36,278 bases of DNA. Source: Leptospirales bacterium. Lineage in GTDB: Bacteria > Spirochaetota > Leptospiria > Turneriellales > JAOUFE01. Of the stretch, positions 6,871 through 35,310 are shown piece by piece. The position numbers and the translations under genes are program-made. Positions within the stretch are counted from its first letter, which is position 1. Each line of letters begins with the position of its first letter. Under the pieces are notes generated by a model. The model saw nothing but the letters and a program-made list of their open reading frames with translations, was not told where the DNA came from and did no database searches. The stretch covers positions 1 to 36,278 of the forward strand of contig JBEQLE010000043.1 of NCBI GenBank assembly GCA_040326155.1, in the 5' to 3' direction.

Positions 6871-6888
6871 TTAAGAACAGTTAAGACG

Positions 6889-14015: not shown

Positions 14016-14969
14016 ATGCAAAAAATCTCGCTTCTATTAATTTTGGTAATTTGCGGGAGTACTCTTTCTGCAAAATCATCCAAAGACAAAAATGCCAACA
14101 CTCTGATAAAAAGAAGAGTCCTTATTCTCGATTTTGTAAATATAAAAAAATCAGAAGACTACACCTATCTGGAACAAAGCATACCGGACTCCTTTCTAGA
14201 CCCACTTGACCAGACGAAATCTTTTGAACTGTTAAGCCGAAACCTCTGGACTAAACTTCGAAAACAACTTAAATACGAGAAAGAAGACGCCTACGATCAA
14301 GGTAAAGCTATTGAGGCAGGCAGAAGAGCGCCGGCTGATGTAATTGTCATGGGTAGTTACACAGTAATCGGTAGTAAAATGCAAATTAACGCAAGCGCTG
14401 TAGACCTTTCTTCGGGGCGAGCGCTGGTAAGCCGCTCTACCGTTACTCCACTTACAGCCAGTATGTTCCAGGCAATTAACAAACTTGCCAAAAGTATGGC
14501 TCAAGAGATGAAAGAAAAACTCCCCCCGTTACCGCAAAAGTTCATTGTTAAAGAACGGGTAAAATATGTCAAAGAGGGTGCGTTCAACACCGTCGGCATT
14601 ATCTGGCGTACTCTTGTAGTTCCCGGTTGGGGGCACCTTTATTCGAACAGGTCCCGAGGGTGGATTTACACGGGAGTCTGGGTGGGAAGCCTCGGTTTTC
14701 TAGGTTATAGTCTTTTTGCCGAAATTACAGCCAAGGCAGAATACCTGAATGCGCCAACAACTTCTAATCTGGATGCATTATATACAACTTATAATGACTC
14801 ACACAAGTTGAGGTGGTATGCCACCTATGCTACAATCGGAGTATATGCTATAGCGATGCTGGATGGCATTATATTCAAAAAAAAGAATACCGGGCAACAA
14901 CTTAATGCAAGGTTTTTACCTATCGTAGGGCCCCGCTACCAGGGCTTCATGTTTCAGCGCAATTTTTAA
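14016..14969 (+). CDS. Exported CsgG/FlgO/TolB-N-like domain protein with DUF5683-like C-terminal membrane region
   Basis: Signal peptide, VLILDFVN...ADVIVMGSY...INASAVDLSSG fold pattern, TLVVPGWGHLY motif, C-terminal Phe. Confidence 0.7.
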   Translation: MQKISLLLILVICGSTLSAKSSKDKNANTLIKRRVLILDFVNIKKSEDYTYLEQSIPDSFLDPLDQTKSFELLSRNLWTKLRKQLKYEKEDAYDQGKAIEAGRRAPADVIVMGSYTVIGSKMQINASAVDLSSGRALVSRSTVTPLTASMFQAINKLAKSMAQEMKEKLPPLPQKFIVKERVKYVKEGAFNTVGIIWRTLVVPGWGHLYSNRSRGWIYTGVWVGSLGFLGYSLFAEITAKAEYLNAPTTSNLDALYTTYNDSHKLRWYATYATIGVYAIAMLDGIIFKKKNTGQQLNARFLPIVGPRYQGFMFQRNF

Positions 14970-14996
14970 AAGATACTATTGAAAACAGGATATACT

Positions 14997-16190
14997 ATGA
15001 ATAAAATAAAAGTATTTATAACGATAGCAACCATCAGTCTGGTAACAATAGCGACACCCGGTTGCATTAACGATGTTGCGTACAGAAGTGATCATTTTTC
15101 GAGCACGGCGGTAACATGGGATATGGTCGCCGCGGGAGACACACACACCCTCGCCCTGCTATCAGATGGAACATTATGGGCATGGGGCGGCAACACAAAC
15201 GGCCAACTCGGACTAGGCGATTCAGGGTTGGGCACCGATAGAAATACTCCAACCCAGGTCGGGAGTTCAACATGGACTAAAGTCAGCGCTGGTTACGATT
15301 TCAGCATTGGCATAAAAAGCGACGGAACCTTATGGGCATGGGGTTTGAATAGTGTATATCAATTGGGGCTGAACGATACGACCCTCAGAAGCAGCCCGAC
15401 AAAAATCGGTTCTGCCAAAAACTGGGCAACGGTTTCGGCCGGTTACGACCACGCCTTTGCAATAAACAACAGCGCTAAGTTATTCGCCTGGGGAAGCAAC
15501 ACCACAGGAGAATTAGGTGACAACAACAACCCAAACGCATCAACCATACCCAAAGCTATAGACGCCGCCAACAACTACGCTCAGGTCGCGGCGGGCCAGG
15601 ATTTTACCATAGCCCGCAGAACCGCAAATACGATATTTGCCTGGGGGTATAATTTAAACGCTGAACTGGGCGACGGCAGCTATGCACAAAAAAACACCCA
15701 GGGGTTTTCAACCGCTTCTTATATCCAGATAGATGCGGGCGGTGGAGTCGCACTGGGAGGCCACGGCTGCGGTATTAAATCGGACAGCACCTTGTTTTGC
15801 TGGGGTGCGGGCACTCTTGGCCAGTTGGGAGATAACAACTCGACCACCTCAAACACCCATGTGCAGGAATTTACCGGTGTGACAACCTGGTCATCTGTTT
15901 CACTGGGTGCGTACCATGCACATGCAATACAAACAGACAGTACGTTATGGGCCTGGGGTTATGATTTTAACGGCCAGCTCGGTCTTGGAACCTCAGGGGG
16001 CGGCACAGACCAAGCATCGCCCGTACAGGTTGGTACGGCCACCGACTGGGAATCGATTTCGGCAGGCAGTTTTCACAATGGCGCTATACGAAATGGGCGA
16101 TTATTTACGTGGGGACTGAACACAAACGGACAGCTCGGAAACGGCGATTATAATCAACAACCATCACCGGTAGAAATAGCTGTACCTTAA
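14997..16190 (+). CDS. RCC1/BLIP-II repeat beta-propeller lipoprotein
   Basis: About seven repeats of AGxxH/F...DGTLWAWGxNxxGQLG. Signal ends ATPG-C. AGGA RBS before ATG 14997. Confidence 0.92.
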   Translation: MNKIKVFITIATISLVTIATPGCINDVAYRSDHFSSTAVTWDMVAAGDTHTLALLSDGTLWAWGGNTNGQLGLGDSGLGTDRNTPTQVGSSTWTKVSAGYDFSIGIKSDGTLWAWGLNSVYQLGLNDTTLRSSPTKIGSAKNWATVSAGYDHAFAINNSAKLFAWGSNTTGELGDNNNPNASTIPKAIDAANNYAQVAAGQDFTIARRTANTIFAWGYNLNAELGDGSYAQKNTQGFSTASYIQIDAGGGVALGGHGCGIKSDSTLFCWGAGTLGQLGDNNSTTSNTHVQEFTGVTTWSSVSLGAYHAHAIQTDSTLWAWGYDFNGQLGLGTSGGGTDQASPVQVGTATDWESISAGSFHNGAIRNGRLFTWGLNTNGQLGNGDYNQQPSPVEIAVP

Positions 16191-16346
16191 GCTAAAGAAC
16201 TTCATTATATATTAATTGAAAACTATATGGAAATTCCATAAAACAGGTTAATATTGAAAAGAATAAAAGAAAAACATATTTTAAAATGATAATCTTATAA
16301 ATATAATTTAATTAAACAAAATAAACACAAAAGAGAGGGTGACATC

Positions 16347-19300
16347 ATGTTAAAAATCGGAGAAGAACCAAGTGGCTTCACCTTGAATGTTTACGGTCTA
16401 CCGGGGCAAAGCGTCAATTTTTCAAAAAGCACTTTTGGCAACGTAACAAGTGTAGTATCGTTTATCGACCTTGAAAACAGCGACAAAAACCAGGGGTGGT
16501 ACTGGGTGAACCGGTTAAGCGCCCTCGCAGACATCCATACCGGCATGAAGTTTTATGCCATCATGTTTAAAAGTTCTGGCGCGGCCGTTTCTGATCAAGA
16601 TATAAGCGGCAAAAAAGACGCATCCACTACAATCAACGCCAAGCTGATAATATTAAAAGATACAACTTTTAACACTCCAGGCGCGGCAAACACATACCAA
16701 CAAGGCTTTCTTGCCTCTAACGATAATTCGTTTGGCACCATTGATTACGCAAAAGTTTTTACGTATATAGTCGACGCAAAATATTTTATCACCGACAAAT
16801 GGTCATACGATAGCTCTGCCAGTGACCACCCGATTTCTTTTCGCCAGATTCCCGACCCAGGGGTGGGCGCATATGACAGCTCCAAATTCGATATTACAAA
16901 AACTTATTTAAAGATACGTCTGGCAAATCTTATTGCAGCGCCGAGAATATTAACGATTACACCCGATCCGGGCAATCCGAAAGTGGCGATAAATACATTG
17001 GGTCAGGTAAAAATCGCTTTTTCAAAGCCCATGGGTTCCAAAGCGGCCGCCGATACCGTTTTCAATACCGGGCAGGTAACGACAGTAAGCAATTACCCGA
17101 TAACGGGCGATGCCACGATAACCGGTATTCCACATGTTGATACCGCGATTTATAACAGCGACGGCTTAAGAGTCGACAATATTGAAAACGTGGGAAAAAT
17201 CGAAAACGTAGTTACGCTAAACACGATAACACAACTCGTCGGCGCGGGTCACCTTTATCTCGACGTATTAAATACCGTAGTTGATGCCAACGGCGTATCG
17301 ATTACCCTTAGTACTACGACCTACCTTGTCGATGCGGTAGAGGCTCTCCCTGAAATTACAAACATAAATATTGTTTCTACCACAGCCGCGCCCAACAATT
17401 TTATAAAAGTAGACGAAACGGCAACCCTTACCTTCAAGGCATCTGAAACGTTAGACAATACGTTATCAGTAGAAATAGGCGGGCAAACAGCGACTATCAG
17501 CGGGCCTGACGCATTGCTTAATTACACGGCGACGCTCGATATCACGGCGACAAACAAAGACTCCATTGCCGAAGGCGCCTTATCGTACGCAATTAACAGT
17601 ATAACCAATGGAACAAGCACGTCTTATGACATAACAGAACCGAGCTCTTCGTTAACCTTCTATAAGACAACGCCTGTAATCACAGAGCTAAATGTAATTA
17701 CTGACAATACTCTTCCAAAAACCCAAATAAAATTGAAGGTAACTTTTAACAGGGGCGTTTATTCTGCCATCGGGGCAAGCGGCGCGCTTACAAACGCCAA
17801 CTTTTCTATTAATTTTACCACAACCGCAAACGCAACGATCGCGGAGGTTCTATCGACCGATTTTAACCACTCAGGCGGCGGAAGCACGGCCATTTTTATA
17901 ATTAATTGCGACAAACCGCCAAACGGAACAGAGGTGGTTCAGGTTCAACCGGCTAACGATATATACGATGCAGCCGGTAACATTCTTCAAAATGATGTGG
18001 CCTACCCAACCGCCACTTTAGACGACCGCTTGGCGCCAACGCTAAACACCGTTAGCATATCTTCGAACAATGCAGCTAACCAATATGCGCATGGTAGGGA
18101 CACAATTACATTGACATTTGCGGCACTTGAAGATATATCGACGCCCACAGTAACTTTCATGAACAGCAAACCTCCGTTTACTCTTACAGGGGGGCCCAAA
18201 TCATGGACTGCAACTTACAAGATGGATCCGGCGAGCGACAACGAAGGTCAGGTTTCTTTCGAGATCTCCAATGTTACGGACGGCACAAATACCAACCCAA
18301 ATACTTTTACCGGAACCATGGACAATACGGCTGTGTACTATCTGAAAACGGCGCCGGTAGTTACCGACACTAAAGTAAGTCCGCAAAACGATTATATTGA
18401 TCTAACGTTTAACCGACCCGTCTACCCCGCACCGGGGGCAAGCGGCACTCTCGACGCAAGCGATTTTACTTTTGGCTTCCAAAACCCGGGCACAAGCGGC
18501 GCGACTGCAAACATGGGTACGGTGGAGCAGACAGCAGATCCGAACATAATTAGAATCTATTTAGATGTAACCGGCACCCCCGACGGGCAAGAGGTGGTTA
18601 CCATCACCGTTAATGCAGATTCGGTGTACGACGGAGCAGGAAACGCCGCAGCCACAGGCGATCACAGCGGTTACTTGCATAATACGGTAAATCCCGCCGA
18701 TGTTTACCTGCGAGATACTATCAGCGATGACGGCAGCAGTTTTACCACCCAGCCACAATGGAAAAGCCCCGACATTCTGGTTTTTAACTATGATCCCGGT
18801 AATAATTTACAGTCTTTGTACGGGGATAATAATATAAACAAAGTTAATATTGGCACAGCGATTGAATATGGTCAGCCAAACTATATTGTATTGCGCGCTC
18901 GAAACCGAGGGGGGGAATTAGCCCGCAATGTAAAGGCCACCGTTTATTACCATAAATTCAGCCCCAGCCATTCCTTTTTGCCAACCACCTGGGGAAAAGT
19001 TGGAACAATCACATGGACGCAGGATATTGCCCCCAACATGACAAATTTAATTGTATCCGATAAATTTGAATGGGCTACAGCCGATATTCCTACCGTCGGG
19101 CATTACTGCTTGATTGCCATAATCGAATGCAACGACGACCCTGCACCCACATGGGAAGAGATTACGGCGACAGTTGTAGACAGGCAAAGCTTTAAAAATT
19201 TTATTAAAGCTGAAAACGATGTTGCGCAAAGAAATGTTAATATTATAAACAAAGTAAAATTATTAAAGCGCAGCATGTCAGTAAAAAAAGTGCAAGCTAC

Positions 19301-19844
19301 GCCCGACGGCAAATACCCCGAGGGCTTTCACATTCTTCCCTTTGAAGTTGGAGCCGGTTCAAACATACAGAAAACCCACAATATAGATATTGCCTTGAGC
19401 ATAGAGTTGCCTGCAGGCTCTATTGCATTTTTGGAAATGCCCACCCATTTGACAGAAAAATTGAAATATTCCGCCGACCAGGGCAAGTGGCAAATTAATA
19501 AACTAGCAAATATCAAGGTCATTAAACATGATAAGGTGAAAAAAACCACCTGGGCTCACGTAAACCTCGCCAACAGAAACCTGTTTAAAGGATTTGAATT
19601 AAAACCCACCGATAAATATGAGTTTAAACTTGGCGTACAAATACCGGAAAAAGATTTCAACAAGCGGTATACGGCAAGAGCCACACAGTACACAAATCAA
19701 GAAAATATAGGCAGTGTAAGCTGGCAAATCGGGGGTGGCTGGAACAAACCCGACAAACCGAACATTTTATACAGGGGAATCGAAAAATTCGCCCGGTTGT
19801 TCACAAGAAAGGAAATTCCCCCTACGCACTGGGAAAACCGATGA
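16347..19844 (+). CDS. Giant Ig-repeat protein 1: Cys-less redoxin-like module, Ig cap, 2 A-B Ig pairs, DVYxRD/SPDI domain, basic tail
   Basis: 1165 aa, no signal peptide, paralogous along its length to the next two genes. Confidence 0.85.
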   Translation: MLKIGEEPSGFTLNVYGLPGQSVNFSKSTFGNVTSVVSFIDLENSDKNQGWYWVNRLSALADIHTGMKFYAIMFKSSGAAVSDQDISGKKDASTTINAKLIILKDTTFNTPGAANTYQQGFLASNDNSFGTIDYAKVFTYIVDAKYFITDKWSYDSSASDHPISFRQIPDPGVGAYDSSKFDITKTYLKIRLANLIAAPRILTITPDPGNPKVAINTLGQVKIAFSKPMGSKAAADTVFNTGQVTTVSNYPITGDATITGIPHVDTAIYNSDGLRVDNIENVGKIENVVTLNTITQLVGAGHLYLDVLNTVVDANGVSITLSTTTYLVDAVEALPEITNINIVSTTAAPNNFIKVDETATLTFKASETLDNTLSVEIGGQTATISGPDALLNYTATLDITATNKDSIAEGALSYAINSITNGTSTSYDITEPSSSLTFYKTTPVITELNVITDNTLPKTQIKLKVTFNRGVYSAIGASGALTNANFSINFTTTANATIAEVLSTDFNHSGGGSTAIFIINCDKPPNGTEVVQVQPANDIYDAAGNILQNDVAYPTATLDDRLAPTLNTVSISSNNAANQYAHGRDTITLTFAALEDISTPTVTFMNSKPPFTLTGGPKSWTATYKMDPASDNEGQVSFEISNVTDGTNTNPNTFTGTMDNTAVYYLKTAPVVTDTKVSPQNDYIDLTFNRPVYPAPGASGTLDASDFTFGFQNPGTSGATANMGTVEQTADPNIIRIYLDVTGTPDGQEVVTITVNADSVYDGAGNAAATGDHSGYLHNTVNPADVYLRDTISDDGSSFTTQPQWKSPDILVFNYDPGNNLQSLYGDNNINKVNIGTAIEYGQPNYIVLRARNRGGELARNVKATVYYHKFSPSHSFLPTTWGKVGTITWTQDIAPNMTNLIVSDKFEWATADIPTVGHYCLIAIIECNDDPAPTWEEITATVVDRQSFKNFIKAENDVAQRNVNIINKVKLLKRSMSVKKVQATPDGKYPEGFHILPFEVGAGSNIQKTHNIDIALSIELPAGSIAFLEMPTHLTEKLKYSADQGKWQINKLANIKVIKHDKVKKTTWAHVNLANRNLFKGFELKPTDKYEFKLGVQIPEKDFNKRYTARATQYTNQENIGSVSWQIGGGWNKPDKPNILYRGIEKFARLFTRKEIPPTHWENR

Positions 19845-19924
19845 TTTATTCAAATAAACCATGAAACTACAGAAACAAAGAAAATACAAAAAAAACTAAA
19901 TTTTGAGAAAAAAAGGAAGCTAAC

Positions 19925-22900
19925 ATGCTAATAGGAAACCAACCAAATAACTTCATACTTGACGTATACGGATTACCCGGTCAGACATTCAATATGTCGC
20001 CAGCCAATTTTGGCGATAAAACAACGCTATTATCGTTTATCGATATTGAAGAGACCGATTCGACCCGGGGCTGGAACTGGATTACAAACTTAAGCGCTAT
20101 AGCCGCGGCTCTTGGCACAAGCGCCCAGGTTTTTGCGATCATCTATAAAAAATCTGGAGGGGCCGTAACCGATACTGACATCAGATCAAAAAGGACTGAC
20201 GTTTCGGTTACCATCGGTGGAGGATTAACGCTTTTAAAAGATATCGATTGGAATGCACCCAGCGCGGGGAAATCATATAAAGATGGTTTTGGCACTGGCG
20301 ACCCTTCTTTTAATCCTCTGGGCGTTGGTACGAACGGTGTCTTTACTTATATAGTATCCAGCCAGTTTTACATTACCGACAAGTGGCATATCGACAGCAC
20401 CAACCAGGCTGACGTATTGTTAAGTGATGCGGCATCTTTTTACCGATATAAAATCGGGGGTTTCTTTTTTAAGAGCCAGGATTTCGCCATTACGCAAACC
20501 TATGTAGAAGAACGCTTAAACGATTTATTTAACGATCCGACGATCAAGCTCACTGACCCAATTATAACCACCGAAGTAAGTGTTTTAACCACAGTTACAA
20601 TTGTATTTTCGAAACCTGTTGGTTTTCTTAACGGCGACGGTACCTTAAACGGCAGCCCGGTGAAAAATTTTACTGCTGTTACAGGTAACTACGATATTAC
20701 CGGAGCAGGCAAAGGAGATCTTCAAATTACCGATATCCAATATGAAAAAATCGGATCAAGATCGATATTAACCAATGTAGGTTTTATAGAAAATGCGGCT
20801 ACGTTAACTCTAAGCGGAACCCCCGGCATCGGCGTGATTAATATTAATTTAAAATCAAATGTAAACGACTTTAACACAATTGTCGACACGAACGGTAACC
20901 CACTTACCGAGTCGTTTGTACCTTACACGGGTGTTGCCATCGAGTCGGTACCACCCACTTTAGACACCGTTTCGATTAGTTCCGATAACCCCAACCCATT
21001 GTATGCCAAAGTGGGCGATACCATTACTTTGCAAATGATAGCCAACGAAGTTATTGAGCAGCCCACGGTAACGATTGGGGATCTAGCTGGAACCGTCACC
21101 TACACCGGCTCAGGCGCAAGCTGGAACGCCGACTACAAAATGGAGTCGGGCGACACCGAGGGGCTGGTAACTTTCCTCATAAGCAATATAGTTGACCTTG
21201 CGGATAATATAGCTCCCGATGTGAACACCGCTACCACTGGTTCGGTAACTTTTATGAAGACCGTGCCTACTATTACATCAGGCGATACTTTAGATCCCGA
21301 CAACACCACTGTTACGGTTACATTTAGTAAAGACGTATATCCCGGTACAGGCGCATCGGGAAACCTATTGCCCGAAGATTTTAACCTAATTTTCAACCAG
21401 AACAGCGGTACTGCAACCAACGCACGTATAAGCGAAGTTCGACGCACTGCGGGTGATACATTCGCACTTACACTTAGCGTAAACCCAGCGGCAAACGGAG
21501 ATGAAACCATCGAGATCAAACCCTTTGCAGGTCAAATTTTCGATGCGGCGGGCAACGTTGCCGAAAATACGACGACCACCGGCGAATTTAACCTCAAAGA
21601 CCACCAGGGTCCCAGTTTGACCTTGGTATCAATCGCCTCGAACAACGCGGCCGGTATGAATTCTTCGTATGCGAAAATCGGCGATACGGTTACGCTGAGC
21701 ATTAATGCAAACGAAGATATTATAGAGCCCATCGTAAAATTCAACAACCAACAACCGGTACCGCTACCGCTGATGGTTAACGGCTCGGGCGCTGCCTGGG
21801 TTGCCAGTTACACTCTGCTAGATACGGATACGGAGGGAAACATCGGGTTTTTAATCAGTAATATAAAAGATACATCTGCGAGGCAAAATACGGCGAACAA
21901 TGTTAACTCCACCACAGGCGGCTCATCGGTCCTTTTTATTAAACCCTCGCCGATTATTACGGGCTGGGTTTTGGCCGACGACAACAGCAACATTACAGTT
22001 GCCTTTGATAAAGCGGTATACACCAGTACGGGGGCCTCGGGCGAATTAACCTTCCTTGATTTTAATTTGGTGTTTACCCAAAATGTGTCAAACGGCGGAA
22101 CGGCGACCAGTGTCGCCATCAGAAATGTCGTGCATACCGCAGACAACCGTACCGCAATTTTATATCTTGATGTAAGCCCTTCGGCAAGCGGTTTCGAGCA
22201 AATCGAGATTACGCCGGTGCAAAACCAGATTTTCGACGCAGCCGGCAACCCCGTTCTTGAAACAACGACAACCGGCCCCGTGCTTCTTAAGGCTTTTTCA
22301 GGGCCTGTATTAAACGTTGTGTCCATTCAGTCTAACAACTATAACGGACTTAACCCTGCGTATGCAAAAGCGCTCGATAAAATTACACTGACCATCAAGG
22401 CAACTAAAGATATTGTAGCGCCTACCGTTCAAATTATGGGGGTAACCCCCGACAGCGTCAACGGTTCGGGAACCGACTGGACAGCAACCTACACAATACT
22501 AGGTTCCGAACTTGAGGGAATAGTGAACTTTGCCATCACTGGTATTTTAGATACCGAAAACCCGGTCAATCCTGGCCTGGCGGGCGTAATCGCGACAAAC
22601 GATGGAACCTCGGTCAATTATATTAAACCTTCGCCGATTATTAGCGTAGGTAATGTTGCGCCTGATAACAGCAAAATAAAGGTAATCTTCAACCGCCCCG
22701 TATATTCAAATCCGGGTGCTATAGGGAACCTGGACATTTCTGATTTTCAAGCCCCGATTTTTAACGCTAATGTCGGCGGCACCGCGACCGGTGTAACTAT
22801 AATCAGCGTCCAACATACGGCCGGAGACTCAAGAGCCGTGCTCTACTTTGATGTCAACCCATCTGCAAGCGGAACGGAAACAATTGAAATACTCCCGCAG

Positions 22901-25900: not shown

Positions 25901-26581
25901 TCAACAACCCAAGATAGCTACATTGTTATTCGTACACGAAACAGGGGCACTGCGGTAGCAACCAATACAAGAGCCACTGCCTACTGGACACACCCGGGTC
26001 ACGGAGCAAATCCTAACCAATGGGAGAAGATTGATAGTGTTTACTTTCCATCGAATATCGCTAATGACGGTTCTTATTATGTTTCCCGTGTATTAACCTG
26101 GCCGCAAGATCAACTTCCTCCTAAGGTGGAATATAGCATAGTTGTAACCGTTGGTTGCGTTGGTGATCCTGAACCTACGACGGCAGAAATGCAACAGATC
26201 AGCAATGAAGGCGAGTTTAAACATTATATACATTATCACAATAATGTCTGTAGTAAAAAAGTACACTTCAGCTCTAGTAACTCTAGTAACTCTGGCCCTG
26301 GTAACTCTGGTAACGCTCCTGGTCACACAGGTAATAACCCTGGTCACTCTGGTGGCAGCCATGGTAACTCTGGTAACGCTCCTGGCCACACAGGTAATAA
26401 CCCTGGTCACTCTGGTGGCAGCCATGGTAACTCTGGTAACGCTCCTGGTCACACAGGAAATAACCCTGGTAAGTCTAGTAGCGCTCCTGGTCACTCAGGT
26501 GACCCTGTTAATACTCCTGCTCCCGCTGGTAAGTCTGGTAAATCACGTAAATCGGGTAAGTCGAGTAAGGGGAAAAAATAA
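19925..26581 (+). CDS. Giant Ig-repeat protein 2: same architecture with 7 A-B Ig pairs and a G/N/S/P/H-rich tail
   Basis: 2218 aa, repeated SNN..YAKxGD and DN..VxFxRxVY..DAAGN units, no signal peptide. Confidence 0.88.
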   Translation: MLIGNQPNNFILDVYGLPGQTFNMSPANFGDKTTLLSFIDIEETDSTRGWNWITNLSAIAAALGTSAQVFAIIYKKSGGAVTDTDIRSKRTDVSVTIGGGLTLLKDIDWNAPSAGKSYKDGFGTGDPSFNPLGVGTNGVFTYIVSSQFYITDKWHIDSTNQADVLLSDAASFYRYKIGGFFFKSQDFAITQTYVEERLNDLFNDPTIKLTDPIITTEVSVLTTVTIVFSKPVGFLNGDGTLNGSPVKNFTAVTGNYDITGAGKGDLQITDIQYEKIGSRSILTNVGFIENAATLTLSGTPGIGVININLKSNVNDFNTIVDTNGNPLTESFVPYTGVAIESVPPTLDTVSISSDNPNPLYAKVGDTITLQMIANEVIEQPTVTIGDLAGTVTYTGSGASWNADYKMESGDTEGLVTFLISNIVDLADNIAPDVNTATTGSVTFMKTVPTITSGDTLDPDNTTVTVTFSKDVYPGTGASGNLLPEDFNLIFNQNSGTATNARISEVRRTAGDTFALTLSVNPAANGDETIEIKPFAGQIFDAAGNVAENTTTTGEFNLKDHQGPSLTLVSIASNNAAGMNSSYAKIGDTVTLSINANEDIIEPIVKFNNQQPVPLPLMVNGSGAAWVASYTLLDTDTEGNIGFLISNIKDTSARQNTANNVNSTTGGSSVLFIKPSPIITGWVLADDNSNITVAFDKAVYTSTGASGELTFLDFNLVFTQNVSNGGTATSVAIRNVVHTADNRTAILYLDVSPSASGFEQIEITPVQNQIFDAAGNPVLETTTTGPVLLKAFSGPVLNVVSIQSNNYNGLNPAYAKALDKITLTIKATKDIVAPTVQIMGVTPDSVNGSGTDWTATYTILGSELEGIVNFAITGILDTENPVNPGLAGVIATNDGTSVNYIKPSPIISVGNVAPDNSKIKVIFNRPVYSNPGAIGNLDISDFQAPIFNANVGGTATGVTIISVQHTAGDSRAVLYFDVNPSASGTETIEILPQANEIYDAAGNPALDTTTTGAQSLHAYDGPVLKNVRIFAANAPTQYAKTGETVTLAFAANKTINTPVVSIAGNVVAASFNGIDWIATYTTTSNDPEGFIRFLIRDITDGVTPAADVFATTDRSSVIYQKPLPVIIGAGLSNDNTKLYITFDRPVYSDSNAIGDLVIGDFNLSFNENGGHTTVVNIEQVIHKAGESTAQLNLSLDNPATSGQTIEVKPATNQIYDAAGNLASDTDTTNLIELHDFHIPVLELVEIYSNNNPVEFANIGEVITVEIKANEAIQKPVFKIAGHTIDPVEVNGSGTSWNASYSMASGDPEGEIKFEISSIRDIAGNSSPNVSVVTDNAVLRKVEFYESAPVMETAELETDNSFVKVTFDRGVYSNIGAIDKLVKDDFVLSFTENGNGLDNPGNATAVNISDVAHVVGENTAFIYLDITNTPPNSNETITVGPKANQIFDGASNAALATNTQGPIFLYDFHGPVLSTVKIESNNAAIAFAKIDDTITLTIIAREEMLQPTVKIATHTLAIANIQQDTLNGTSTKEGYNTHWIATYDMEDIDVEGDVPFEISQLVDQLGNVNSGLFSTITEGSRVTFYKTVPKINTTSLAPGNQYVDLTFNRVVYSAEGATGALTSDNFNLTVLSVGGASVVAIKNIPFDHTEGTNSVRIYLTITGTPNGLDTIKINPVNADPLCVYGPAGNKALSADSTGIITLNDFKGPSIESIFVVSNNVRDNQFARTGQIITLSIHTNEDIEKPSIKIAGHVIDPEDVTGGGQDWQATYTLQAPPVDNEGLITYSITNIQDTSPQNNLGNDIIATSGVMYYPTMPCIVGGNIVEGNLFINVIFNRSVFPALVPATPKDPDNYFTLLLTQPAGGTLTAAMQPLATPPDSPTITIGLDLSQLGGPGEFIEIQAISGTLEDIAGNIITYDTVSECVTTGKVALADLSSGTPDVYVRDGIDDNGTVPSKGQLNSPDILLFTSYPNDATLEPYKGPNPISDNTSNPKISTTQDSYIVIRTRNRGTAVATNTRATAYWTHPGHGANPNQWEKIDSVYFPSNIANDGSYYVSRVLTWPQDQLPPKVEYSIVVTVGCVGDPEPTTAEMQQISNEGEFKHYIHYHNNVCSKKVHFSSSNSSNSGPGNSGNAPGHTGNNPGHSGGSHGNSGNAPGHTGNNPGHSGGSHGNSGNAPGHTGNNPGKSSSAPGHSGDPVNTPAPAGKSGKSRKSGKSSKGKK
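26300..26470 (+). repeat. 63-bp coding tandem repeat (x2.7) encoding GNSGNAPGHTGNNPGHSGGSH
   Basis: Near-identical units start at 26300, 26363 and 26426. Confidence 0.95.
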
Positions 26582-26600
26582 ATACACTCTATAGAAGCAA

Positions 26601-26624: not shown

Positions 26625-26865
26625 ACACAAAAAATTCGTGCTCTGGTAGACATTGATTTTACATATATGTCTGGGTGAGACTTTGTTCTCAACCAGACAA
26701 AACTAACGACCGACCAGAGAGTTTGCAAATGGACAGACGCATTAAGCTAAAATGAAAAAGTAGAAAAATATTTTGAAAGATTGATCTCTACTTAAACCCG
26801 GCGCCCTTGTCGGCGAAAATCCAGCAAACAGGGGCTTGAAAAAAGATGAAAACTAGGAGATAATT

Positions 26866-29800
26866 ATGCCTTTAATTGGACAAAACCCGGATACCTTTAC
26901 GTTAGACAAATGGGGGCTACCGGGGCAAAATGTTATCTTTACACCGTTAGGCTTTGGTAACAAAATCACCCTGTTGTCGTTTATCAACATCGAAGAACCC
27001 GATCCTACCCTGGGGTGGAACTGGATTACAAACTTAAGCAATATCGCGACGGCTCTTGGTGCTAATGCTCAGGTTATTGCGGTTATCTTTAAAACTTCCG
27101 GCGGTACGGTGACGGACGGCGAGATCAATACAAGAAGAACTCTAAACTCTGTAACCATTAGCGGCGGGTTAACACTTTTAAAAGATGTCGATTGGGCGAT
27201 AAGCGCGGCAAACAATTACCAGGTCGGCGGCTTTAGCGCCGACCCGTCTTTTACAAAACCGGTAAGCAATGGAATATGGTCGTACATTGTTTCAGAAGAT
27301 TTTCAAATTACCGACAAGTGGCACTTAAACACCACCGATCAAGTAGACTTTAACTTAAGCGACCCGGTCTCGTTTAACCGGTTTCAATCGGGGGGAAGCC
27401 AATTTAACAGCGTTGACTTTACAATATCCGAATCATTTGCGATTGATCGGTTGAACAATCTTTTTAACCCACCTTACATTCTAGGCGCACTGCCCGTTGA
27501 AGCAAACCCGGTTAATTCGTTACCATCTGTAGATATCGTATTTTCTAAACCAATCGGTGTCAGCGGTTCGGTCCCTATCGATGTTGCACCAATAGTCAAC
27601 ATGGGTAATTACGGCCTTAGCGGCGCAGGGGCAGCAGGTGCGCCGTTAAATATTACCGGGGTCAATTACGGCCTCATCGGCCAAATTGAAAATGTGGTAA
27701 TAATCACCACAAACGACAATCTAAGCACAGGCCCGGTTGTTATTACACCGACCGTTTCAATAACCGATTTAAACGGGGTAGTAATCAGTACACCGAAAAC
27801 AAACGTCACATACAACGCCGATGTAACGCCTCCATCACTAACTTCTATTAATATTTATTCCAGCACGGGTCAGCCCTTGACTCATGCAAAAGAGAACGAT
27901 ACGGTTACGATTAATTTTACAGCGGACGATAATCTGGCAGTGACGCCCGCGGTTACGATCGGCAACCCTCCCGTAGCCGCCTCCGTAACCGGCGGGGCGA
28001 CAACATGGGTGGCAACGCACGACATGACAGCCGGCCAGAGCGAAGGAATTGTTGTTTTCCAGATTACCAATATTCAAGATACGTTAGGCAATTCATCGGG
28101 CCCCTACGGAGCGTCGATTCCCGGGGGAAATACGGTGACTTACGATAGAACCCTTCCGCAAATCGGCAGTGTAACCGGCTTAGCAACGGATAATACATGG
28201 ATAGATATCCTGTTTACCGAAAATGTTTATGGCGCTGCGGGTGCCGGTACGGTTGCAAACAATAAACTCATTACTGGCAACTTTACTATCACAAACAGCA
28301 ACGCAGGCAATCCGGTAGGTAACCTCGTTGTTACCCATATCCCGGGAGACAATACGGCTAGAGTCAATTTTACCACTTTTAGCGATGCCGATGCCGGGGA
28401 GATTATCACGATTACAATAATCGGCGTTTTTGACACAGCGGGCAATGAAAGTGCTGTCGGCCACAATATTGATTCTCCATTAAACGATATTAAAGCGCCG
28501 GTTTTAGATCCAATATCCATTGCCTCCAATAATCCTATTGATAGCTCTATTGCAGGTCCAACTCATGATGTGACTGTTTCTTTTACAGCAAGTGAGCCGG
28601 TAACTGTTGGTAGTGCGACTCTTAACACCGCTGCTGCAACAGTTACTGACACAGGAAGTAATAATTGGACCGCAACTAAAAACTTTACAAGTGGCGACAC
28701 AGAAGGGCTTGTCATCTTTGAGATAATCAACGTCTCTGATGGCACGAACAATGTTCCGCTTACAAATTCAGTGATTGGTCCCTCTCAGGTCACTTTTGAT
28801 AAAACAGCGCCTGTCTTTGCCGCTCCCGCTACTGCAATTTTTCCTTTAGTAAATAATACGCAAGTTGAAATTGCATTCGATGAAATAGTTAACGGAACGA
28901 ATACTTCACTTTCAAGCCTGGTAGGGAACGCCGTTGTCACCGTTACCCCGAGTAATTCCGCATTATTGCCTGTTACAGGAGTCACCTTCACCCATGTCGT
29001 GAATACGGATTTATTGACGGTGAATTTCACATTAGCTGCACTCGCCCAGGCAGGTGATACCATTACAATCGAAGTGGATACGGTGTATGACAAGGCGGGA
29101 AATCTAGCAAGTAATGTTACTAGTGGTGCCATAGCCCTGATTGATGAAACTTCTGCACAGGTTGTCACCGCAGAAATCAGGTCTAACAATTATGGTAATG
29201 CGAACAATAACCAGACTTTTGCAAAACCGGGTGATACGGTTACGGTTGCTTTTACAACAAGCGAACCATTAAGCGCGCCTCCTTTAAGTGTGACCATTGC
29301 CAATTCTGGGCCTCTTACACCGATAGAAATAGGCGGCCCAACCAGTTGGGAAGCCACTTATGTTATGCCGGGCGCTAATGCGGTAGCAAACGATTACATC
29401 TTTTTTAATATCACCGGAATAAACGATGGAACAAATCCTCCCGTCCCCGATGTCATTGCACCACTGGGGTCGAATGTCGACTTGGTATGGTTTTGGAACC
29501 CGCAGCCGGCAATAAACACACCTCTTCTCGAAGCAGATAACAGCTTTATAACACTCACTTTTAACCGGGACGTCTATGCAAACACCGGAGCTACCGGCAG
29601 CCTGGACAATACCGATTTAGACCTGACTTTTACACAAGGTGGAGGAACTGCCACGAGTGTAACCAAAGGCACCGTCACTCATAATCCCCTCACAAAACAT
29701 GTAGTCAAATTGAACCTCACTACAACTGGAACGGCCAATGGTTTAGAGACCATCGAGATCAACCCTGTACTAAGCCAAATCTTTGACGCAGCCGGAAACC

Positions 29801-31071
29801 CAGCGTTAGCTACCGATACAACCGGCGTCTTGTTGCTAAGTGACGTCACACCCGATGTTTTCGTAAGAGACAACATAGATGATGACGGAGTAGAACCTTC
29901 AACGGGAGGTCTCTCTTTAAGCCCCGACATCATTTCTTTAGCAAGCAATCCCAGTCTTGCTACTTTACAAGCAGATTATGGAGGGAGCGACCCTCTCATC
30001 GTCAAAAACTACAATTTAGGTTCTACACCAGAGTTTGGACAAGATAATTATATTCTAGTCCGAGCGCAAAACCGAGGCGCAGTAGATGCGGTGAATGTAG
30101 TAGCTACGGTTTATTGGGCACAGTTCTCTACATCGATTTTACCTGTCGACTGGCATTTAATCGGTGATGCGGTGTTTCCCGCCAACATACCCAATGATGG
30201 TGATCTTTATGTTTCAAACCCGTTGACATGGTTAAGCGCAGATATACCGGTCGTGGGTCATTATTGCCTCATTGCGGTAATCGGATGCGACGGAGATCCA
30301 AAACCATCCGGGACCGAAATTACTGCGGCAGTTACAAACTCGACCACCTATATGCAGTATATCCGCGATGTAAATGATATCACCTATCGAAATATGAACG
30401 TTATAGATGATATTCCGGCGCCTCCTCCCCCGGCACCTGCCCCAGCTCCGGGTTCCGATGCCCCTGCACCGCCACCCGAACCAGCTGGCACCCCGGACGG
30501 TAAAGACCCATATGGATTTTTACCATTGCCCTTTGTATTTGCCGGGATGGCAAACCCGAATACAAGAACACCAATGCAATTAGAGATGCATTTGAACCTT
30601 CCGAAAGGATCGCGAGCTTTTCTTGAAGTTCCACTGAATTTAGTCGAGCCTGAAAAGGTGGAATACACAAGACAACGAATTATGGTCTATGCAGAGAAGC
30701 AATATGAAATAATTCGAGACCAAAACATCAAACCAAAGTTTAATATTATTAAGATCGACAGGAAACGAAAAGTAGCCTGGATCTTTTTAAATCCTCATCA
30801 AGTGAACAGTTTTGACAATTTGGCAGTTGCGGCGGAAGTTAAGTATAACTTAAGACTATTTCTTCAAATTCCCAAGGAGTTTATAAATAACAGATACAAA
30901 GCTTATGCGGTCCAATTGGTTGGCGGCGAAGAACTTGGCCGAGCAGCATGGTTCCTCGGGCGTGGATGGAGACCACCTAAAAAGCCAGGAATTGTTTACA
31001 GATTTTTCAGAAAAGTTATCGATTTTATTTTCATGCAAAAAAAAAGGCCACGATACCTTATTAAATATTAA
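26866..31071 (+). CDS. Giant Ig-repeat protein 3: same architecture with 3 A-B Ig pairs, Pro-rich linker and basic tail
   Basis: 1401 aa, AGGAG RBS, no signal peptide, paralogous to the two previous genes. Confidence 0.88.
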   Translation: MPLIGQNPDTFTLDKWGLPGQNVIFTPLGFGNKITLLSFINIEEPDPTLGWNWITNLSNIATALGANAQVIAVIFKTSGGTVTDGEINTRRTLNSVTISGGLTLLKDVDWAISAANNYQVGGFSADPSFTKPVSNGIWSYIVSEDFQITDKWHLNTTDQVDFNLSDPVSFNRFQSGGSQFNSVDFTISESFAIDRLNNLFNPPYILGALPVEANPVNSLPSVDIVFSKPIGVSGSVPIDVAPIVNMGNYGLSGAGAAGAPLNITGVNYGLIGQIENVVIITTNDNLSTGPVVITPTVSITDLNGVVISTPKTNVTYNADVTPPSLTSINIYSSTGQPLTHAKENDTVTINFTADDNLAVTPAVTIGNPPVAASVTGGATTWVATHDMTAGQSEGIVVFQITNIQDTLGNSSGPYGASIPGGNTVTYDRTLPQIGSVTGLATDNTWIDILFTENVYGAAGAGTVANNKLITGNFTITNSNAGNPVGNLVVTHIPGDNTARVNFTTFSDADAGEIITITIIGVFDTAGNESAVGHNIDSPLNDIKAPVLDPISIASNNPIDSSIAGPTHDVTVSFTASEPVTVGSATLNTAAATVTDTGSNNWTATKNFTSGDTEGLVIFEIINVSDGTNNVPLTNSVIGPSQVTFDKTAPVFAAPATAIFPLVNNTQVEIAFDEIVNGTNTSLSSLVGNAVVTVTPSNSALLPVTGVTFTHVVNTDLLTVNFTLAALAQAGDTITIEVDTVYDKAGNLASNVTSGAIALIDETSAQVVTAEIRSNNYGNANNNQTFAKPGDTVTVAFTTSEPLSAPPLSVTIANSGPLTPIEIGGPTSWEATYVMPGANAVANDYIFFNITGINDGTNPPVPDVIAPLGSNVDLVWFWNPQPAINTPLLEADNSFITLTFNRDVYANTGATGSLDNTDLDLTFTQGGGTATSVTKGTVTHNPLTKHVVKLNLTTTGTANGLETIEINPVLSQIFDAAGNPALATDTTGVLLLSDVTPDVFVRDNIDDDGVEPSTGGLSLSPDIISLASNPSLATLQADYGGSDPLIVKNYNLGSTPEFGQDNYILVRAQNRGAVDAVNVVATVYWAQFSTSILPVDWHLIGDAVFPANIPNDGDLYVSNPLTWLSADIPVVGHYCLIAVIGCDGDPKPSGTEITAAVTNSTTYMQYIRDVNDITYRNMNVIDDIPAPPPPAPAPAPGSDAPAPPPEPAGTPDGKDPYGFLPLPFVFAGMANPNTRTPMQLEMHLNLPKGSRAFLEVPLNLVEPEKVEYTRQRIMVYAEKQYEIIRDQNIKPKFNIIKIDRKRKVAWIFLNPHQVNSFDNLAVAAEVKYNLRLFLQIPKEFINNRYKAYAVQLVGGEELGRAAWFLGRGWRPPKKPGIVYRFFRKVIDFIFMQKKRPRYLIKY

Positions 31072-31076
31072 TGCTG

Positions 31077-31196
31077 AAAAGGGGAAAAGCTGGATTTTTA
31101 TTCTGTGCGTTTTTCCCCTTTTCCCTGGCGGAGGGCGCCTTTTTACAACAAAAAAGGCGCCCTCCGCCACCCAATACGATATTTTCAGAGCATCGA
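31077..31196 (+). repeat. Modular three-stem intergenic repeat, copy 2
   Basis: AAAAGGGGAAAAGC...CTTTTCCCT, a different central hairpin GGCGGAGGGCGCCTTTTT...AAAAAGGCGCCCTCCGCC, then ACCCAATACGATATTTT...GCATCGA. Confidence 0.8.
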
Positions 31197-31362
31197 GGTC
31201 GGTTCAACACTCTCACAATCGCCGAAAATAAGTATCTTCGCACAGTGTGAGTTAACTATTTGCCCAGTTCTTCCGCAAACCGAACCATTTATAGAATTCA
31301 AAATTGCCGAATTGGAAATCAAAACGCCTGCCTGGAGCTTTAATATTATATAAAATTTATCG

Positions 31363-31390
31363 TTGACAATAACTTCGAAAGACAAATAAT
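31363..31390 (+). promoter_or_regulatory. Candidate sigma70 promoter of the lipoprotein gene
   Basis: TTGACA (31363-31368), 16 bp, AATAAT (31385-31390). Confidence 0.45.
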
Positions 31391-31440
31391 GTAGTTATAT
31401 ATTATCGTCTAATGCAAAGAGAAAGACATTGAGGAATTTC

Positions 31441-34368
31441 ATGACAAAAAAAACAGTATCAAAAATCGGGTTAATTATTCTAGTCTCCTATTTCACAATA
31501 AACTGTAGTGGAAATGTCGAAGTAACAGTCTCCGCAGAAGACGGGGGCGTTGTTAATAGTTCATCGGGTGCGACTTTAAGCATTCCACCAGGTGCCATGG
31601 ATGTAAGTACAACGATAGTCATGACCAGTACAGACAAACTGGCGACACAAGATAATGTAACACCCATAGATAATACGTATAACTTTTCTCCCGACGGACA
31701 TGAATTCAATCTACCTGCAACTCTGGAAATTTGTTACGACCCACAAGAAATTACTTCGCAAGGTTTATCGGAAAACACGGTTTCGGTTTATTATCTTGAC
31801 CCAAATAACGGCGCGTATGCAAATGTCGGCGGTGAAGTCGATGCCGTTACTCATTGTGTCACGGCATCGGTAGGTCATTTTTCTACCTACCTTATCGCCG
31901 CTCGAAATTTAGCGGCGATTAACACGGGGCCGGTAGTCGACAACCCTGTTTTTATGCCAAGTACCGTTTTGGCTGGTCTACCGTTGGCCGTTCGTTCAAT
32001 AATCACGAGCCTGCAAAACGGCGCCACGACAGGTTCTATTGCATCGGCTTATTTATATTATAGAGTTTCGGGTAGCGGAGCCGCATATACAAAAATACTT
32101 TTGAATCCGGAATATGAAAATACAGCCGGGCAATATTACCTGGCCTTTATACCTGCCACATCGGTAACAACTGCGGGTATCGATTATTATATAGATGCGA
32201 CTGATAATTTGGGTAATGTAACATCAACAACACCTTCGAACATTCCAACGGGATTGATAAAACAAGTCGATTTTACCGTTCCCTTGCAATTTAACCCCGC
32301 AGTTTTAGATATAAGCGCGGGTTATAGTAGAATGTTTACCGTAAAAGCAACCCAGACTAACGGAAAAATACACACAATTTACCCCTCAAATTTTACTGTA
32401 GCCGGAGGAACAGTTAAGATTGTTTCGACAGGCACCTCGGCAAATCTGCAATTTACCGCTGAAACGCTCGGCCCTGCGACGTTAACCGTAACCAGTGGAG
32501 CGCTAACCGGAAGCCCGACGATCAATGTTCATCCGGGTAATTTAGCCAGCATAGCGTTTCTTGATCAGGTTACGAGTATGCCGATCAATGCTGCGGTAGA
32601 CGTAAGTTCAGGTGGTTCATTTGATTTTGACTTGGTGGGCTATGACAATTATAATAATTATATTAATGTTCTTCCGGTTTTTTCGATCACAAATGCTATC
32701 GGAACAGTAGATACTTCGATACCAGGCGTAAACGCGCGGTTTACGGCAAGCAATGTAACTACCCCTATATCGGGGCAAATCGACGCTGATCTAGGTGGTT
32801 TGAACAATGCGATATCTATAAATATTATACCAATTGTCGATACTCCTGTATTTACACCCCCGGGGGGAGCATATAGTTCTGTTCAGAATGTTACCATCAC
32901 AAGTACAACAGGCGCAACCATCTGTTACGATACCGCCGGAGTGACACCAACATGCGACGTTGCGAAAACAGGGTGTGCTGCAGGAACGTTATATACCGCG
33001 CCTTTATCCGTTTCTACGGACACCGACATAAAAGCAATCGGTTGCAAAGCTGGTTTTGCCGATTCTTCCGTATCTGCGACAGAATCATATACTTTTGAAT
33101 ACATAAGTTTTAACGTAACGGGTCTTCAAGGAACTTTGGTTTTACAGAACAATGGAAGTAATGATCTTAGTATTTCGTCGGATGGCTTACATTCCTTTAC
33201 TTTGCCGGTTTCAAATTACGATGTTACAGTGCTCACCCACCCTGCTACACCTTCACAAACATGTTCGGTTGTGAATGGCAACGGTACGTTTAATGTAGGC
33301 GATACAGTATCCATATGGATTAACTGTGTAACCAATACTTATGCCGCAGGTGGTTCGTTAAAAGTCGGGGATATGCCTTTGGATTTTACTTTACCCCTGT
33401 ATAATGGCTTTGGAGCAACATATGAATTTTCACAAGCCGCTTATCCAAATAAAGTTACACTATTATCGTTTGTAGATATAGATGTTTTTAATATCGACCC
33501 TAATAATAGTTGGGCATGGCTATCCCATATACAGAATATAAGAAGCGTATTGGGTACAAGCGTAGATTATATCGCCGTAATATTTAATTCCCAGGGTAGC
33601 GTAACAGATACAAATATAACCAATAAACTCGTTGCAAACCCGGTTGACATTACCGGCTTAACTTTACTAAGAGACAACACCTGGCTCTCTTCCATCGCAA
33701 AAATCTACACTGACGGCTTCCAAACAATCAACGACCCCTCCTTTACCGGCGGAGTAATTGCCGATACCTGGACCTACATTATCTCGGAAGATTATTACAT
33801 CACCGACAAATGGCATAAAAATACAACCGCAAACAACGAACCCATATCATTTAACAAATTTTACGCAGATGCGCCTTACGACGCCGTTCCTTTTAACAGC
33901 GCTGATTTTGCAAACGCAGAGGCGTATTTAAAAAAGAGGTTAACCAACCTTCTGGCTCCGCCTACAATTTTAAGCGCCAACCCGGTCGGTGGGGCCACAG
34001 TGAATGGGCTGACCAGGGTCGAGATCGTTTTCTCTAAACCCGTCGGCGCGCTTTTAGCGACGCCCTATGGCACCACGCTACTCGACACTTCGCCCATAAC
34101 TGCGATTTCGAACTACATTTTTACGGGTGGCGGTGTGGGCACTTTGGGTTTTTCAAGGACGAATCCGATTCTTTACGAAAACAGCGGCCTACGTTCAGCC
34201 AGTATTGATAATGTGGGTGCCATAGAAAACATGGCTACGTTTAACTTAACCGGCACTCTGAACCCCGGCGGCGTAGATAATATTATCAACATATTGCTTG
34301 GAAGTAATATAACAGATGCTGCCGGTAATCCGCTTATACTGAATCAAGTAATCTACAACGCGAATTGA
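31441..34368 (+). CDS. Multidomain lipoprotein: ZU5-like, Ig-like and chitobiase/Fn3-associated domains, C-terminal Cys-less redoxin-like module plus Ig cap
   Basis: Signal ends FTIN-C. ATLSIPPGAM...FSPDGHEFNLPATL...VGHFSTY (ZU5/UPA-like), TPVFTPPGGAY, VTGLQGTLVLQNNG. The last ~335 aa align with the N-termini of the three giant proteins. GAGG RBS favours ATG 31441 over TTG 31429. Confidence 0.85.
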   Translation: MTKKTVSKIGLIILVSYFTINCSGNVEVTVSAEDGGVVNSSSGATLSIPPGAMDVSTTIVMTSTDKLATQDNVTPIDNTYNFSPDGHEFNLPATLEICYDPQEITSQGLSENTVSVYYLDPNNGAYANVGGEVDAVTHCVTASVGHFSTYLIAARNLAAINTGPVVDNPVFMPSTVLAGLPLAVRSIITSLQNGATTGSIASAYLYYRVSGSGAAYTKILLNPEYENTAGQYYLAFIPATSVTTAGIDYYIDATDNLGNVTSTTPSNIPTGLIKQVDFTVPLQFNPAVLDISAGYSRMFTVKATQTNGKIHTIYPSNFTVAGGTVKIVSTGTSANLQFTAETLGPATLTVTSGALTGSPTINVHPGNLASIAFLDQVTSMPINAAVDVSSGGSFDFDLVGYDNYNNYINVLPVFSITNAIGTVDTSIPGVNARFTASNVTTPISGQIDADLGGLNNAISINIIPIVDTPVFTPPGGAYSSVQNVTITSTTGATICYDTAGVTPTCDVAKTGCAAGTLYTAPLSVSTDTDIKAIGCKAGFADSSVSATESYTFEYISFNVTGLQGTLVLQNNGSNDLSISSDGLHSFTLPVSNYDVTVLTHPATPSQTCSVVNGNGTFNVGDTVSIWINCVTNTYAAGGSLKVGDMPLDFTLPLYNGFGATYEFSQAAYPNKVTLLSFVDIDVFNIDPNNSWAWLSHIQNIRSVLGTSVDYIAVIFNSQGSVTDTNITNKLVANPVDITGLTLLRDNTWLSSIAKIYTDGFQTINDPSFTGGVIADTWTYIISEDYYITDKWHKNTTANNEPISFNKFYADAPYDAVPFNSADFANAEAYLKKRLTNLLAPPTILSANPVGGATVNGLTRVEIVFSKPVGALLATPYGTTLLDTSPITAISNYIFTGGGVGTLGFSRTNPILYENSGLRSASIDNVGAIENMATFNLTGTLNPGGVDNIINILLGSNITDAAGNPLILNQVIYNAN

Positions 34369-35302: not shown

Positions 35303-35310
35303 AAGAAAAG

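Follow-up and report, generated by a model that had tools for sequence, protein, structure and literature searches.

The enzymes ResA, TlpA and Etrx are exported and carry a membrane or lipid anchor, and in adhesins such as LapA and MpIBP the N-terminal domain serves as a periplasmic retention plug. Both groups resemble parts of a locus in the DNA analysed here (the window), a stretch of 36,278 nucleotides from a Leptospirales bacterium. At 14016-34368 on its + strand lie six co-oriented and intact open reading frames (ORFs), g1 to g6, as a first-pass annotation of the sequence had claimed. This region is a single example of an unnamed cassette, conserved in spirochaetes, in which three parts are constant: a g1-type membrane protein, a lipoprotein whose fold varies, and one to three proteins without a signal peptide that begin with a shared unit, here called the head. 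In the window these head-first proteins are the giants g3, g4 and g5; the lipoprotein is g2, and g6 is a further lipoprotein that ends in a head. No described system matches the cassette. The first-pass annotation had not recognised the arrangement from any such system, and we likewise did not find the architecture in print, supplements aside.

The head has the same fold as the TlpA/ResA/Etrx-type proteins (Pfam families AhpC-TSA and Redoxin) and an N-terminal strand motif of the same type (..IGDxPxDFTL..), and relatives with a CxxC match these Pfam families. It differs from them in having neither the CxxC nor a peroxidatic Cys, with a conserved WxW instead, and in continuing into an immunoglobulin (Ig)-like cap and a stalk that can reach 2200 residues, in giants that carry no export signal. 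Like the LapA/SiiE/MpIBP-type adhesins, the giants have a signal-less start, a folded N-terminal domain and a repeat stalk, with a VWA domain near the C-terminus in relatives. Unlike those adhesins, the giants lack RTX repeats, their tails are basic, no transporter genes lie nearby, the HlyD family stays below cut-off and the accessory genes differ, encoding a DUF5683 protein and a lipoprotein. A further resemblance is to the curli protein CsgG, of the fold group with LpoB, TolB-N and FlgO/FlgP: its N-terminal alpha/beta part corresponds to the periplasmic domain of g1-type proteins, whereas g1 continues into a DUF5683-like helical membrane domain. A role for g1 as a CsgG curli channel was rejected, as the match covers a sub-domain only, without membrane hairpins, and csgA/B/E/F-like neighbours are absent. 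Holin-dependent (type 10) release, an analogy only, likewise sets the gene of a small multi-pass membrane protein beside large signal-less proteins; the cassette loci, however, have no endolysin or spanin gene, and g1 has a signal peptide and a periplasmic domain. Cohesin-dockerin scaffolding was also rejected, with no cohesin or dockerin Pfam match in g1-g6 at E <= 0.01. Finally, a group of S8 peptidases from other phyla has the same C-terminal domain as some giants, with a protease in front of it where the giants have head and stalk.

The head and the giants that begin with it

The head is a unit of about 335 residues that starts g3, g4 and g5 and closes g6, in agreement with the first-pass description of g6 as a lipoprotein ending in the unit of the giants. 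In BLASTP comparisons, residues 644-939 of g6 align with residues 2-292 of g3 (35% identity, E 1.5e-42), residues 644-976 with residues 1-334 of g4 (40%, E 3.8e-47) and residues 646-902 with residues 4-255 of g5 (42%, E 1.4e-46). Mean column identity among the four heads is 56%, and a head profile run against the whole 4.26-Mb genome (G000) found exactly these four copies. In an AlphaFold2 (AF2) model of the head (predicted local distance difference test, pLDDT, 66; predicted template modelling score, pTM, 0.69), residues ~1-160 resemble ResA, TlpA-like proteins, Etrx2, AhpE and CcmG (Foldseek E 1e-6 to 5e-5, target template modelling (TM) score 0.6-0.71), and a helix and then a beta-sandwich, the Ig-like cap, follow. 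The second half of the head matches Pfam Big_5 in relatives P0016 and P0063; an ESM Atlas search with the head, taken as a lead only, gave best scores of 0.82 to Big_5-type clusters. Homology to the thioredoxin fold begins at residue 1-4 of the giants.

The active site of this fold is lost. None of the heads of g3-g6 matches the Pfam AhpC-TSA or Redoxin models at E <= 0.01. The relative P0107 passes both (43 bits against a threshold of 26, E 4e-11, and 33 against 27, respectively), and P0096 lies just under threshold at 24 bits. At the positions aligned with the catalytic CxxC and the peroxidatic Cys, g3-g6 have no Cys, and the CxxC is retained only in relatives P0091, P0096 and P0107, where it sits directly before the WxW conserved in all heads. 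Given the loss of CxxC in g3-g6, the head is a redox-dead thioredoxin fold of the ResA/TlpA type with an Ig-like cap; a thioredoxin fold has been turned into a non-catalytic, family-defining head. The three relatives with CxxC are themselves signal-less, their heads being followed directly by a VWA domain, and by their sequences they may be a branch of the family that is still redox-active.

Upstream of the ATG the frames of g3, g4 and g5 stay open for 18, 6 and 3 codons, giving at most 1183, 2224 and 1404 residues against the 1165, 2218 and 1401 of the annotated proteins. Since the frames close so soon, no signal peptide is possible on g3-g5. BLASTP, the AF2 and Foldseek comparison and this frame closure all bear out the first-pass account of three signal-less giants opening with a redoxin-like and Ig-cap unit. 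By motif count the stalks consist of ~225-residue double units, two in g3, seven in g4 and three in g5. They had been called Ig repeats. The repeats are real, the seven g4 units being 28-50% identical to one another, but their Ig nature is weakly shown: Pfam Big_12 (E 5e-4) and Big_5 (E 0.006) each match one of the seven units, both below threshold. Against PDB sequences a stalk unit gave a chance-level match to polyubiquitin alone (E 0.31).

The closing ~400 residues of g3 and of g5 were modelled (pLDDT 65) as a pair of beta-sandwiches followed by a Pro-rich linker and a helix at the end. Foldseek returned generic tandem beta-sandwiches for this model (RbmA, CNA and transglutaminase C-terminal barrels), uninformative at a query TM of at most 0.2, and PDB sequences gave no match. 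The last 45 residues have a net charge of +4 in g3, +8 in g4 and +12 in g5. The hydrophobic moment (muH) of the g3 tail, 0.96, is reached by none of 500 shuffled sequences and that of the g5 helix by 12.6% of shuffles, so that the tail is significantly amphipathic in g3 only. Basic or amphipathic ends resemble membrane-targeting helices. More than 1000 S8 peptidases of ~785 residues share the C-terminal region of g3 and g5, at 28-32% identity over 91-94% of its length; PF00082 is present in 119 of the 120 sharers listed. They come from several phyla, with Acidobacteriota, Massilia, Nitrosomonas and a cyanobacterium among the names, and the three inspected (from P0144-P0264) have no signal peptide. 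The cassette in this way ties its C-terminal domain to a very large, unstudied family of signal-less S8 peptidases.

The head family is rare. Searched against 1.84 billion representative sequences, the head profile found 143 proteins at E <= 1e-3 and 28 at E <= 1e-30, all unnamed; many of the weaker matches cover the Ig cap alone. Ten relatives that were looked up are metagenomic and either unnamed or labelled 'hypothetical protein', nine of them in singleton clusters and one in a cluster of two. The redoxin part is present in 62 members and lies at residues 1-41 in 56 of these. In the other six (g6, P0005, P0007, P0019, P0020 and P0031) the head is internal or C-terminal, and all six have a lipoprotein-type signal. 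N-terminal heads thus never occur with a signal peptide and internal heads always follow a lipoprotein signal, a rule that gives a handle on the question of export. The g3/g5-type C-terminal domain is found in eight of the 62 members, and five have Lys-rich tails (K+R at least 0.37 of the last 60 residues); of these, P0015 matches Pfam HC2 (E 2e-7) and P0010 carries a helix-hairpin-helix (HhH) motif. Among the domains of the relatives are Big_5/12/13, HYDIN/VesB-like Ig, DUF5018 and VWA, the last in 17 of 54 relatives scanned. Domains of these kinds are typical of exported proteins.

Constant neighbours and recurrent head fusions

Related loci were collected by a kin search, a search of 401 genomes of the phylum and pattern scans, and come from metagenome-assembled genomes (MAGs) of Leptospirales, Spirochaetia and Spirochaetota. 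The gene order of the cassette is found again in several families of the phylum (Table 1). A g1-type gene lies at most two genes upstream of the head-first gene in eight of the nine loci with enough upstream DNA, L040 being the exception, and a lipoprotein gene lies directly upstream of it in all ten loci. Six of these upstream lipoproteins are mutually homologous (30-48% identical). Across the loci the main fold of the upstream lipoprotein varies: RCC1, beta-helix or FGE-sulfatase-like. The co-occurrence of head-first proteins, CsgG-like and lipoprotein neighbours and a head-bearing lipoprotein that had been put up for testing at first pass holds in part. The g1-type gene and the upstream lipoprotein recur, but a head-bearing lipoprotein is found in two of the ten loci, the window and L012, and whole-genome searches found none in five other genomes with head-first proteins (G009, G107, G181, G194 and G290; 91-98% complete).

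Table 1. Gene content of the ten cassette loci, in gene order (aa, amino acids)
Locus	g1-type gene	Upstream lipoprotein	Head-first protein	Next
Window	yes	RCC1	three	g6, then giant-gene remnant
G009 (L011)	473 aa	RCC1, 501 aa	1147 aa	unrelated gene
L012	DUF5683, 344 aa	FGE-sulfatase-like	932 aa	541-aa lipoprotein ending in head
L013	as L012	as L012	cut by contig end	
L015	CsgG-N + DUF5683, 311 aa	483 aa	1393 aa	contig end
L018	298 aa	DUF1565 beta-helix, 499 aa	552 aa	opposite-strand gene
L041	311 aa	479 aa	1714 aa, with VWA	opposite-strand gene
L043	335 aa	489 aa	1006 aa	
L040	none adjacent	DUF1565, 599 aa	474 aa + 816 aa	
L042	position cut by contig start	partial	441 aa	

The protein g1 carries a signal peptide and a periplasmic domain of CsgG-N/LpoB/FlgO-like type; its DUF5683-like domain bears the motif PGWGHLY together with two hydrophobic helices, and its C-terminal end is aromatic (..FQRNF). 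It is homologous to the same-position proteins of other loci (E 3.5e-16), which share PGWG(Q/H)xY, the two helices and an aromatic end such as ..GYRF. As to its earlier description as CsgG/FlgO-like, the match of g1 itself to Pfam FlgO is sub-threshold (20 bits against 22.6); the same-position homologues of L015, L041 and L043, and only these, pass Pfam CsgG (43-47 bits against 20.8, positions 32-104 of 210). The periplasmic domain of the homologues also matches LpoB and TolB_N. DUF5683 (PF18935) is passed in L012 and L013 (37.7 bits against 26.7), is sub-threshold in L015, L041 and L043 and gives no match in the window g1. LIC11435_fam (NF047756) matches six of seven members of the family with a best E of 6.5e-19, far below its 380-bit cut-off, the match to g1 being partial. 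Against PDB sequences the family matched LpoB alone (E 0.11-0.31), and a PHROGs search with seven g1-type proteins gave one match, to an unnamed family, and no holin. In the literature searched, DUF5683 appears only for PG0140, an unlocalised outer-membrane-vesicle protein of P. gingivalis (PMC13744359). Elsewhere in the genome (G000:C105:19654-24185), three tandem genes for proteins of ~360 residues carry the CsgG-N/LpoB-like domain of g1 without the membrane domain.

The lipoprotein g2 is an RCC1 propeller, as first annotated, with matches to Pfam WD40_RLD (PF25390, E 3e-69) and, in six stretches, to RCC1 (PF00415, E 1e-60); its orthologue in G009 is 37% identical. The lipoboxes of g2 (..ATPGC) and g6 (..FTINC) were judged by eye, with no predictor used. 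In g6 a CHB_HEX_C_1 domain (residues 477-549) and a pre-head domain (residues 555-640) precede the head, which stands at the very C-terminus; in four head-bearing lipoproteins no more than a few residues follow the Ig cap. The pre-head domain is common to g6 and the N-terminus of the G009 RCC1 lipoprotein, of which residues 62-144 match residues 555-636 of g6 (E 1e-4) and also residues 34-118 of P0007. Similarly, residues 15-157 of the upstream lipoprotein of L040 match residues 2-144 of P0031 (43% identity, E 5e-37). To judge from these alignments, some pre-head parts have been borrowed from the cassette's own lipoprotein.

On a tree of the 62 heads, the lipoprotein-type heads need at least five changes, which corresponds to at least five independent fusions. 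Four head-fusion groupings have 95-99% support in the Shimodaira-Hasegawa-like approximate likelihood ratio test (SH-aLRT). The head of P0005 pairs with that of its neighbour P0006 (99%), P0020 with P0034 (97%) and P0031 with P0023/P0046 (95%); at L012 the lipoprotein head pairs with the head of its own neighbour (99%). That neighbours fuse again and again is a classic, if indirect, sign of parts working together, and since heads recur fused to lipoproteins, the head is able to function once exported by Sec. Deletion within the array could have produced such fusions, in keeping with a broken remnant of a further giant gene 3' of g6 (35038-35299). The two pieces of the remnant correspond to residues 1237-1262 (85% identity) and 1340-1401 (61% identity, ending in ..RPRYEIKY and a stop) of g5, with E 1.8e-15 and tblastn in agreement.

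The first-pass annotation had read the shared unit as a homotypic docking module, the g6 head recruiting or co-exporting the three giants by head-to-head binding. One unit is indeed common to all four proteins, and head-bearing lipoproteins arose repeatedly, each grouping with head-first proteins of its own lineage. Given the scarcity of head-bearing lipoproteins across loci and genomes, however, most giants would be without a partner; in the window the g6 head is no closer to the heads of g3-g5 than to those of other genomes, and co-export of a folded partner by Sec is not known. A complex prediction for the g6 and g4 heads, with alignments as input, scored 0.00; controls were not run, and it counts neither way. 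Docking of this kind is unlikely. What stands of the proposed link is a genetic tie of the head to lipoproteins and to a CsgG-N-like protein; the head-bearing lipoprotein, being present in so few loci and in none of the five other genomes, is not a general anchor. The constant partners of the giants are the headless lipoprotein and the g1-type membrane protein.

The cassette might also be an evolving or decaying array of paralogues without joint function, in which the shared unit reflects tandem duplication and recombination between neighbours. The broken remnant would fit such decay, as would the head-first protein of L040, which is split into two ORFs, and a content of guanine and cytosine (GC) in the cassette above that of the genome. 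Against this stand the six intact ORFs of the window, the recurrence of the gene order across several families of the phylum and 22-23 invariant head columns in 10-11 diverse sequences, and the array reading is most improbable. At L040 (9308-13196, in G181) the two ORFs, the second with a VWA domain, lie 13 nt apart; the split could stem from a frameshift or a sequencing error, or the gene may truly be divided.

Location and export of the giants

The reading we favour, tentatively and at somewhat less than an even chance, is that the giants are envelope fibrils made up of head, stalk and cationic tail, and that their exit takes a route other than Sec, one dependent on the two genes upstream of them. 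Under this scenario the giants would form envelope or surface fibrils and would exit without a signal peptide, the route most likely depending on the two genes that precede them. The head would have its place next to the lipoprotein, beyond the cytoplasm, and would serve there for holding or for binding a ligand, not as an enzyme. The protein g6 would be a short lipid-anchored display of the head, formed by fusion of an N-terminal lipoprotein part to a head, and an optional accessory as opposed to an obligatory anchor. An extracytoplasmic role is suggested by the lipoprotein-head fusions, the domain repertoire of the relatives, the export signals on both constant neighbours and amino-acid composition. 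A composition classifier trained on this genome (cross-validated area under the curve 0.83) gives the giants scores of 0.78-0.88, the median being 0.72 among proteins that have a signal peptide and 0.26 among the rest.

Several observations weigh against the fibril reading. The composition scores of the giants lie at about the 90th-95th percentile of signal-less proteins, whose 95th percentile is 0.82, and are therefore not decisive. None of g3-g5 has a signal peptide, and secretion and transporter genes are absent from all ten loci. Canonical type I adaptor and ATP-binding cassette (ABC) families (TIGR01843 and TIGR01842) are below cut-off in five of five genomes, with best HlyD-type scores of 21 bits in G000 and 24 bits in G009 against 209 and a best PrtD-type score of 253 bits against 510; this genome-wide test is weak because the strict cut-offs are passed by only one and none, respectively, of 14 control genomes. 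The cationic or amphipathic C-terminal ends also fit cytoplasmic proteins, as do the Lys-rich, H1-like tails and HhH motif of some relatives and a C-terminal domain shared with S8 peptidases of which the three inspected are signal-less. All the evidence is computational and from MAGs; the carriers are all uncultured, and function is inferred from sequence in a rare family.

Several of these points lead to a cytoplasmic alternative, in which the giants are membrane- or nucleoid-attached scaffolds held by their C-terminal ends while the head contacts a cytoplasmic part of g1. The absence of a signal peptide is what such scaffolds would show, and so are the strongly amphipathic g3 tail and the positive net charge of all three ends, the H1-like tails of five relatives (with HC2 in P0015 and HhH in P0010), the domain shared with signal-less peptidases and the CxxC kept in some relatives. 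We nevertheless regard a cytoplasmic location as rather unlikely: in all six proteins with an internal head, of at least five origins, the head is exported within a lipoprotein, the domain repertoire and composition are like those of exported proteins, and both constant neighbours bear export signals.

A signal-less protein that opens with a folded domain at residue 1, continues as a long repeat stalk and, in about a third of the relatives scanned, has a VWA domain also resembles type I (RTX-like) adhesins, which would emerge C-terminus first through a transporter whose genes lie elsewhere, the head being the periplasmic retention plug. That the giants are such adhesins is very unlikely. There are no GGxGxD motifs in g3-g5 and no HemolysinCabind match, the tails are basic and not acidic, and the transporter searches described above found neither genes at the ten loci nor HlyD- or PrtD-type scores above the strict cut-offs.

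If the giants, of up to 2218 residues and built of exported-type domains, do get out of the cell without an export signal, the two genes that constantly adjoin them are candidate parts of a route not yet described. One could go further and suppose a new Sec-independent export-and-anchoring pathway of diderm spirochaetes, in which the g1-type protein and the lipoprotein would move and hold the megaproteins, the head would target or retain them and g6-type heads would tune or seed their assembly. We put this forward as a speculative and somewhat doubtful extension.

Layout of the window

The features of the cassette are collected in Table 2. Successive genes from g1 to g6 are separated by 9, 156, 80, 284 and 357 nt, and purine runs resembling Shine-Dalgarno sequences lie upstream of the starts of g1, g3, g4 and g5. 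Promoter-like sites number 55 in the whole region against 37 expected.

Table 2. Positions of cassette genes and features in the window
Feature	Position	Strand	Description
g1	14016-14969	+	317 aa, exported membrane protein
g2	14979-16190	+	403 aa, RCC1 propeller lipoprotein; likely true start ATG at 14997
g3	16347-19844	+	1165 aa, head-first giant, no signal peptide
g3 head	16347-17366	+	by alignment
g3 C-terminal domain	from ~18609	+	with cationic amphipathic helix
g4	19925-26581	+	2218 aa, head-first giant, no signal peptide
g4 head	19925-20944	+	by alignment
g4 stalk	20948-25714	+	seven ~225-aa units
g4 C-terminus	first beta-sandwich to ~26446	+	then Gly/Asn/His/Pro-rich low-complexity stretch and Lys-rich end
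g5	26866-31071	+	1401 aa, head-first giant, no signal peptide
g5 head	26866-27885	+	by alignment
g5 C-terminal domain	29833-31071	+	two beta-sandwiches, Pro-rich linker, cationic tail
Terminator-like hairpin	31116-31135	+	3' of g5; consensus match only
Promoter-like site	31363-31390	+	ahead of g6; 11/12 consensus positions, consensus match only
g6	31429-34368	+	979 aa, lipoprotein ending in head; likely start ATG at 31441
g6 head	33358-34365	+	by alignment
Giant-gene 3' remnant	35038-35299	+	broken, two pieces in different frames; ~670 nt 3' of g6

The window is contig C109 of the G000 assembly, which comprises 171 contigs and is 94.7% complete. Each cassette gene has a GC content of 43-50%, higher than in the genome as a whole (39.6%) and in the flanks (38-39%); similarly, the giant gene of L012 (locus at 6023-10732) has 54.6% GC against 36% in the left flank. 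The raised GC of the cassette could reflect amino-acid bias or horizontal transfer. A 105-residue ORF on the minus strand (35018-35335), overlapping the remnant, is probably spurious. PADLOC gave no match for g1-g6 and two S8 relatives, and so no sign of a known defence system.

Upstream of the cassette, 629-4752 (+) holds six successive ORFs of 137-281 residues without a Pfam match at E <= 0.001. Two neighbouring genes for membrane proteins of the Borrelia_P13 family follow at 6208-6870 and 7273-7872 (+; E 8e-16 and 7e-17) and, together with the partial LIC11435-family match of g1, suggest a spirochaete as the source; a 790-residue protein encoded at 9696-12068 (+) combines a BrkB/YihY-type membrane domain with BNR/Ycf48-like propeller repeats.

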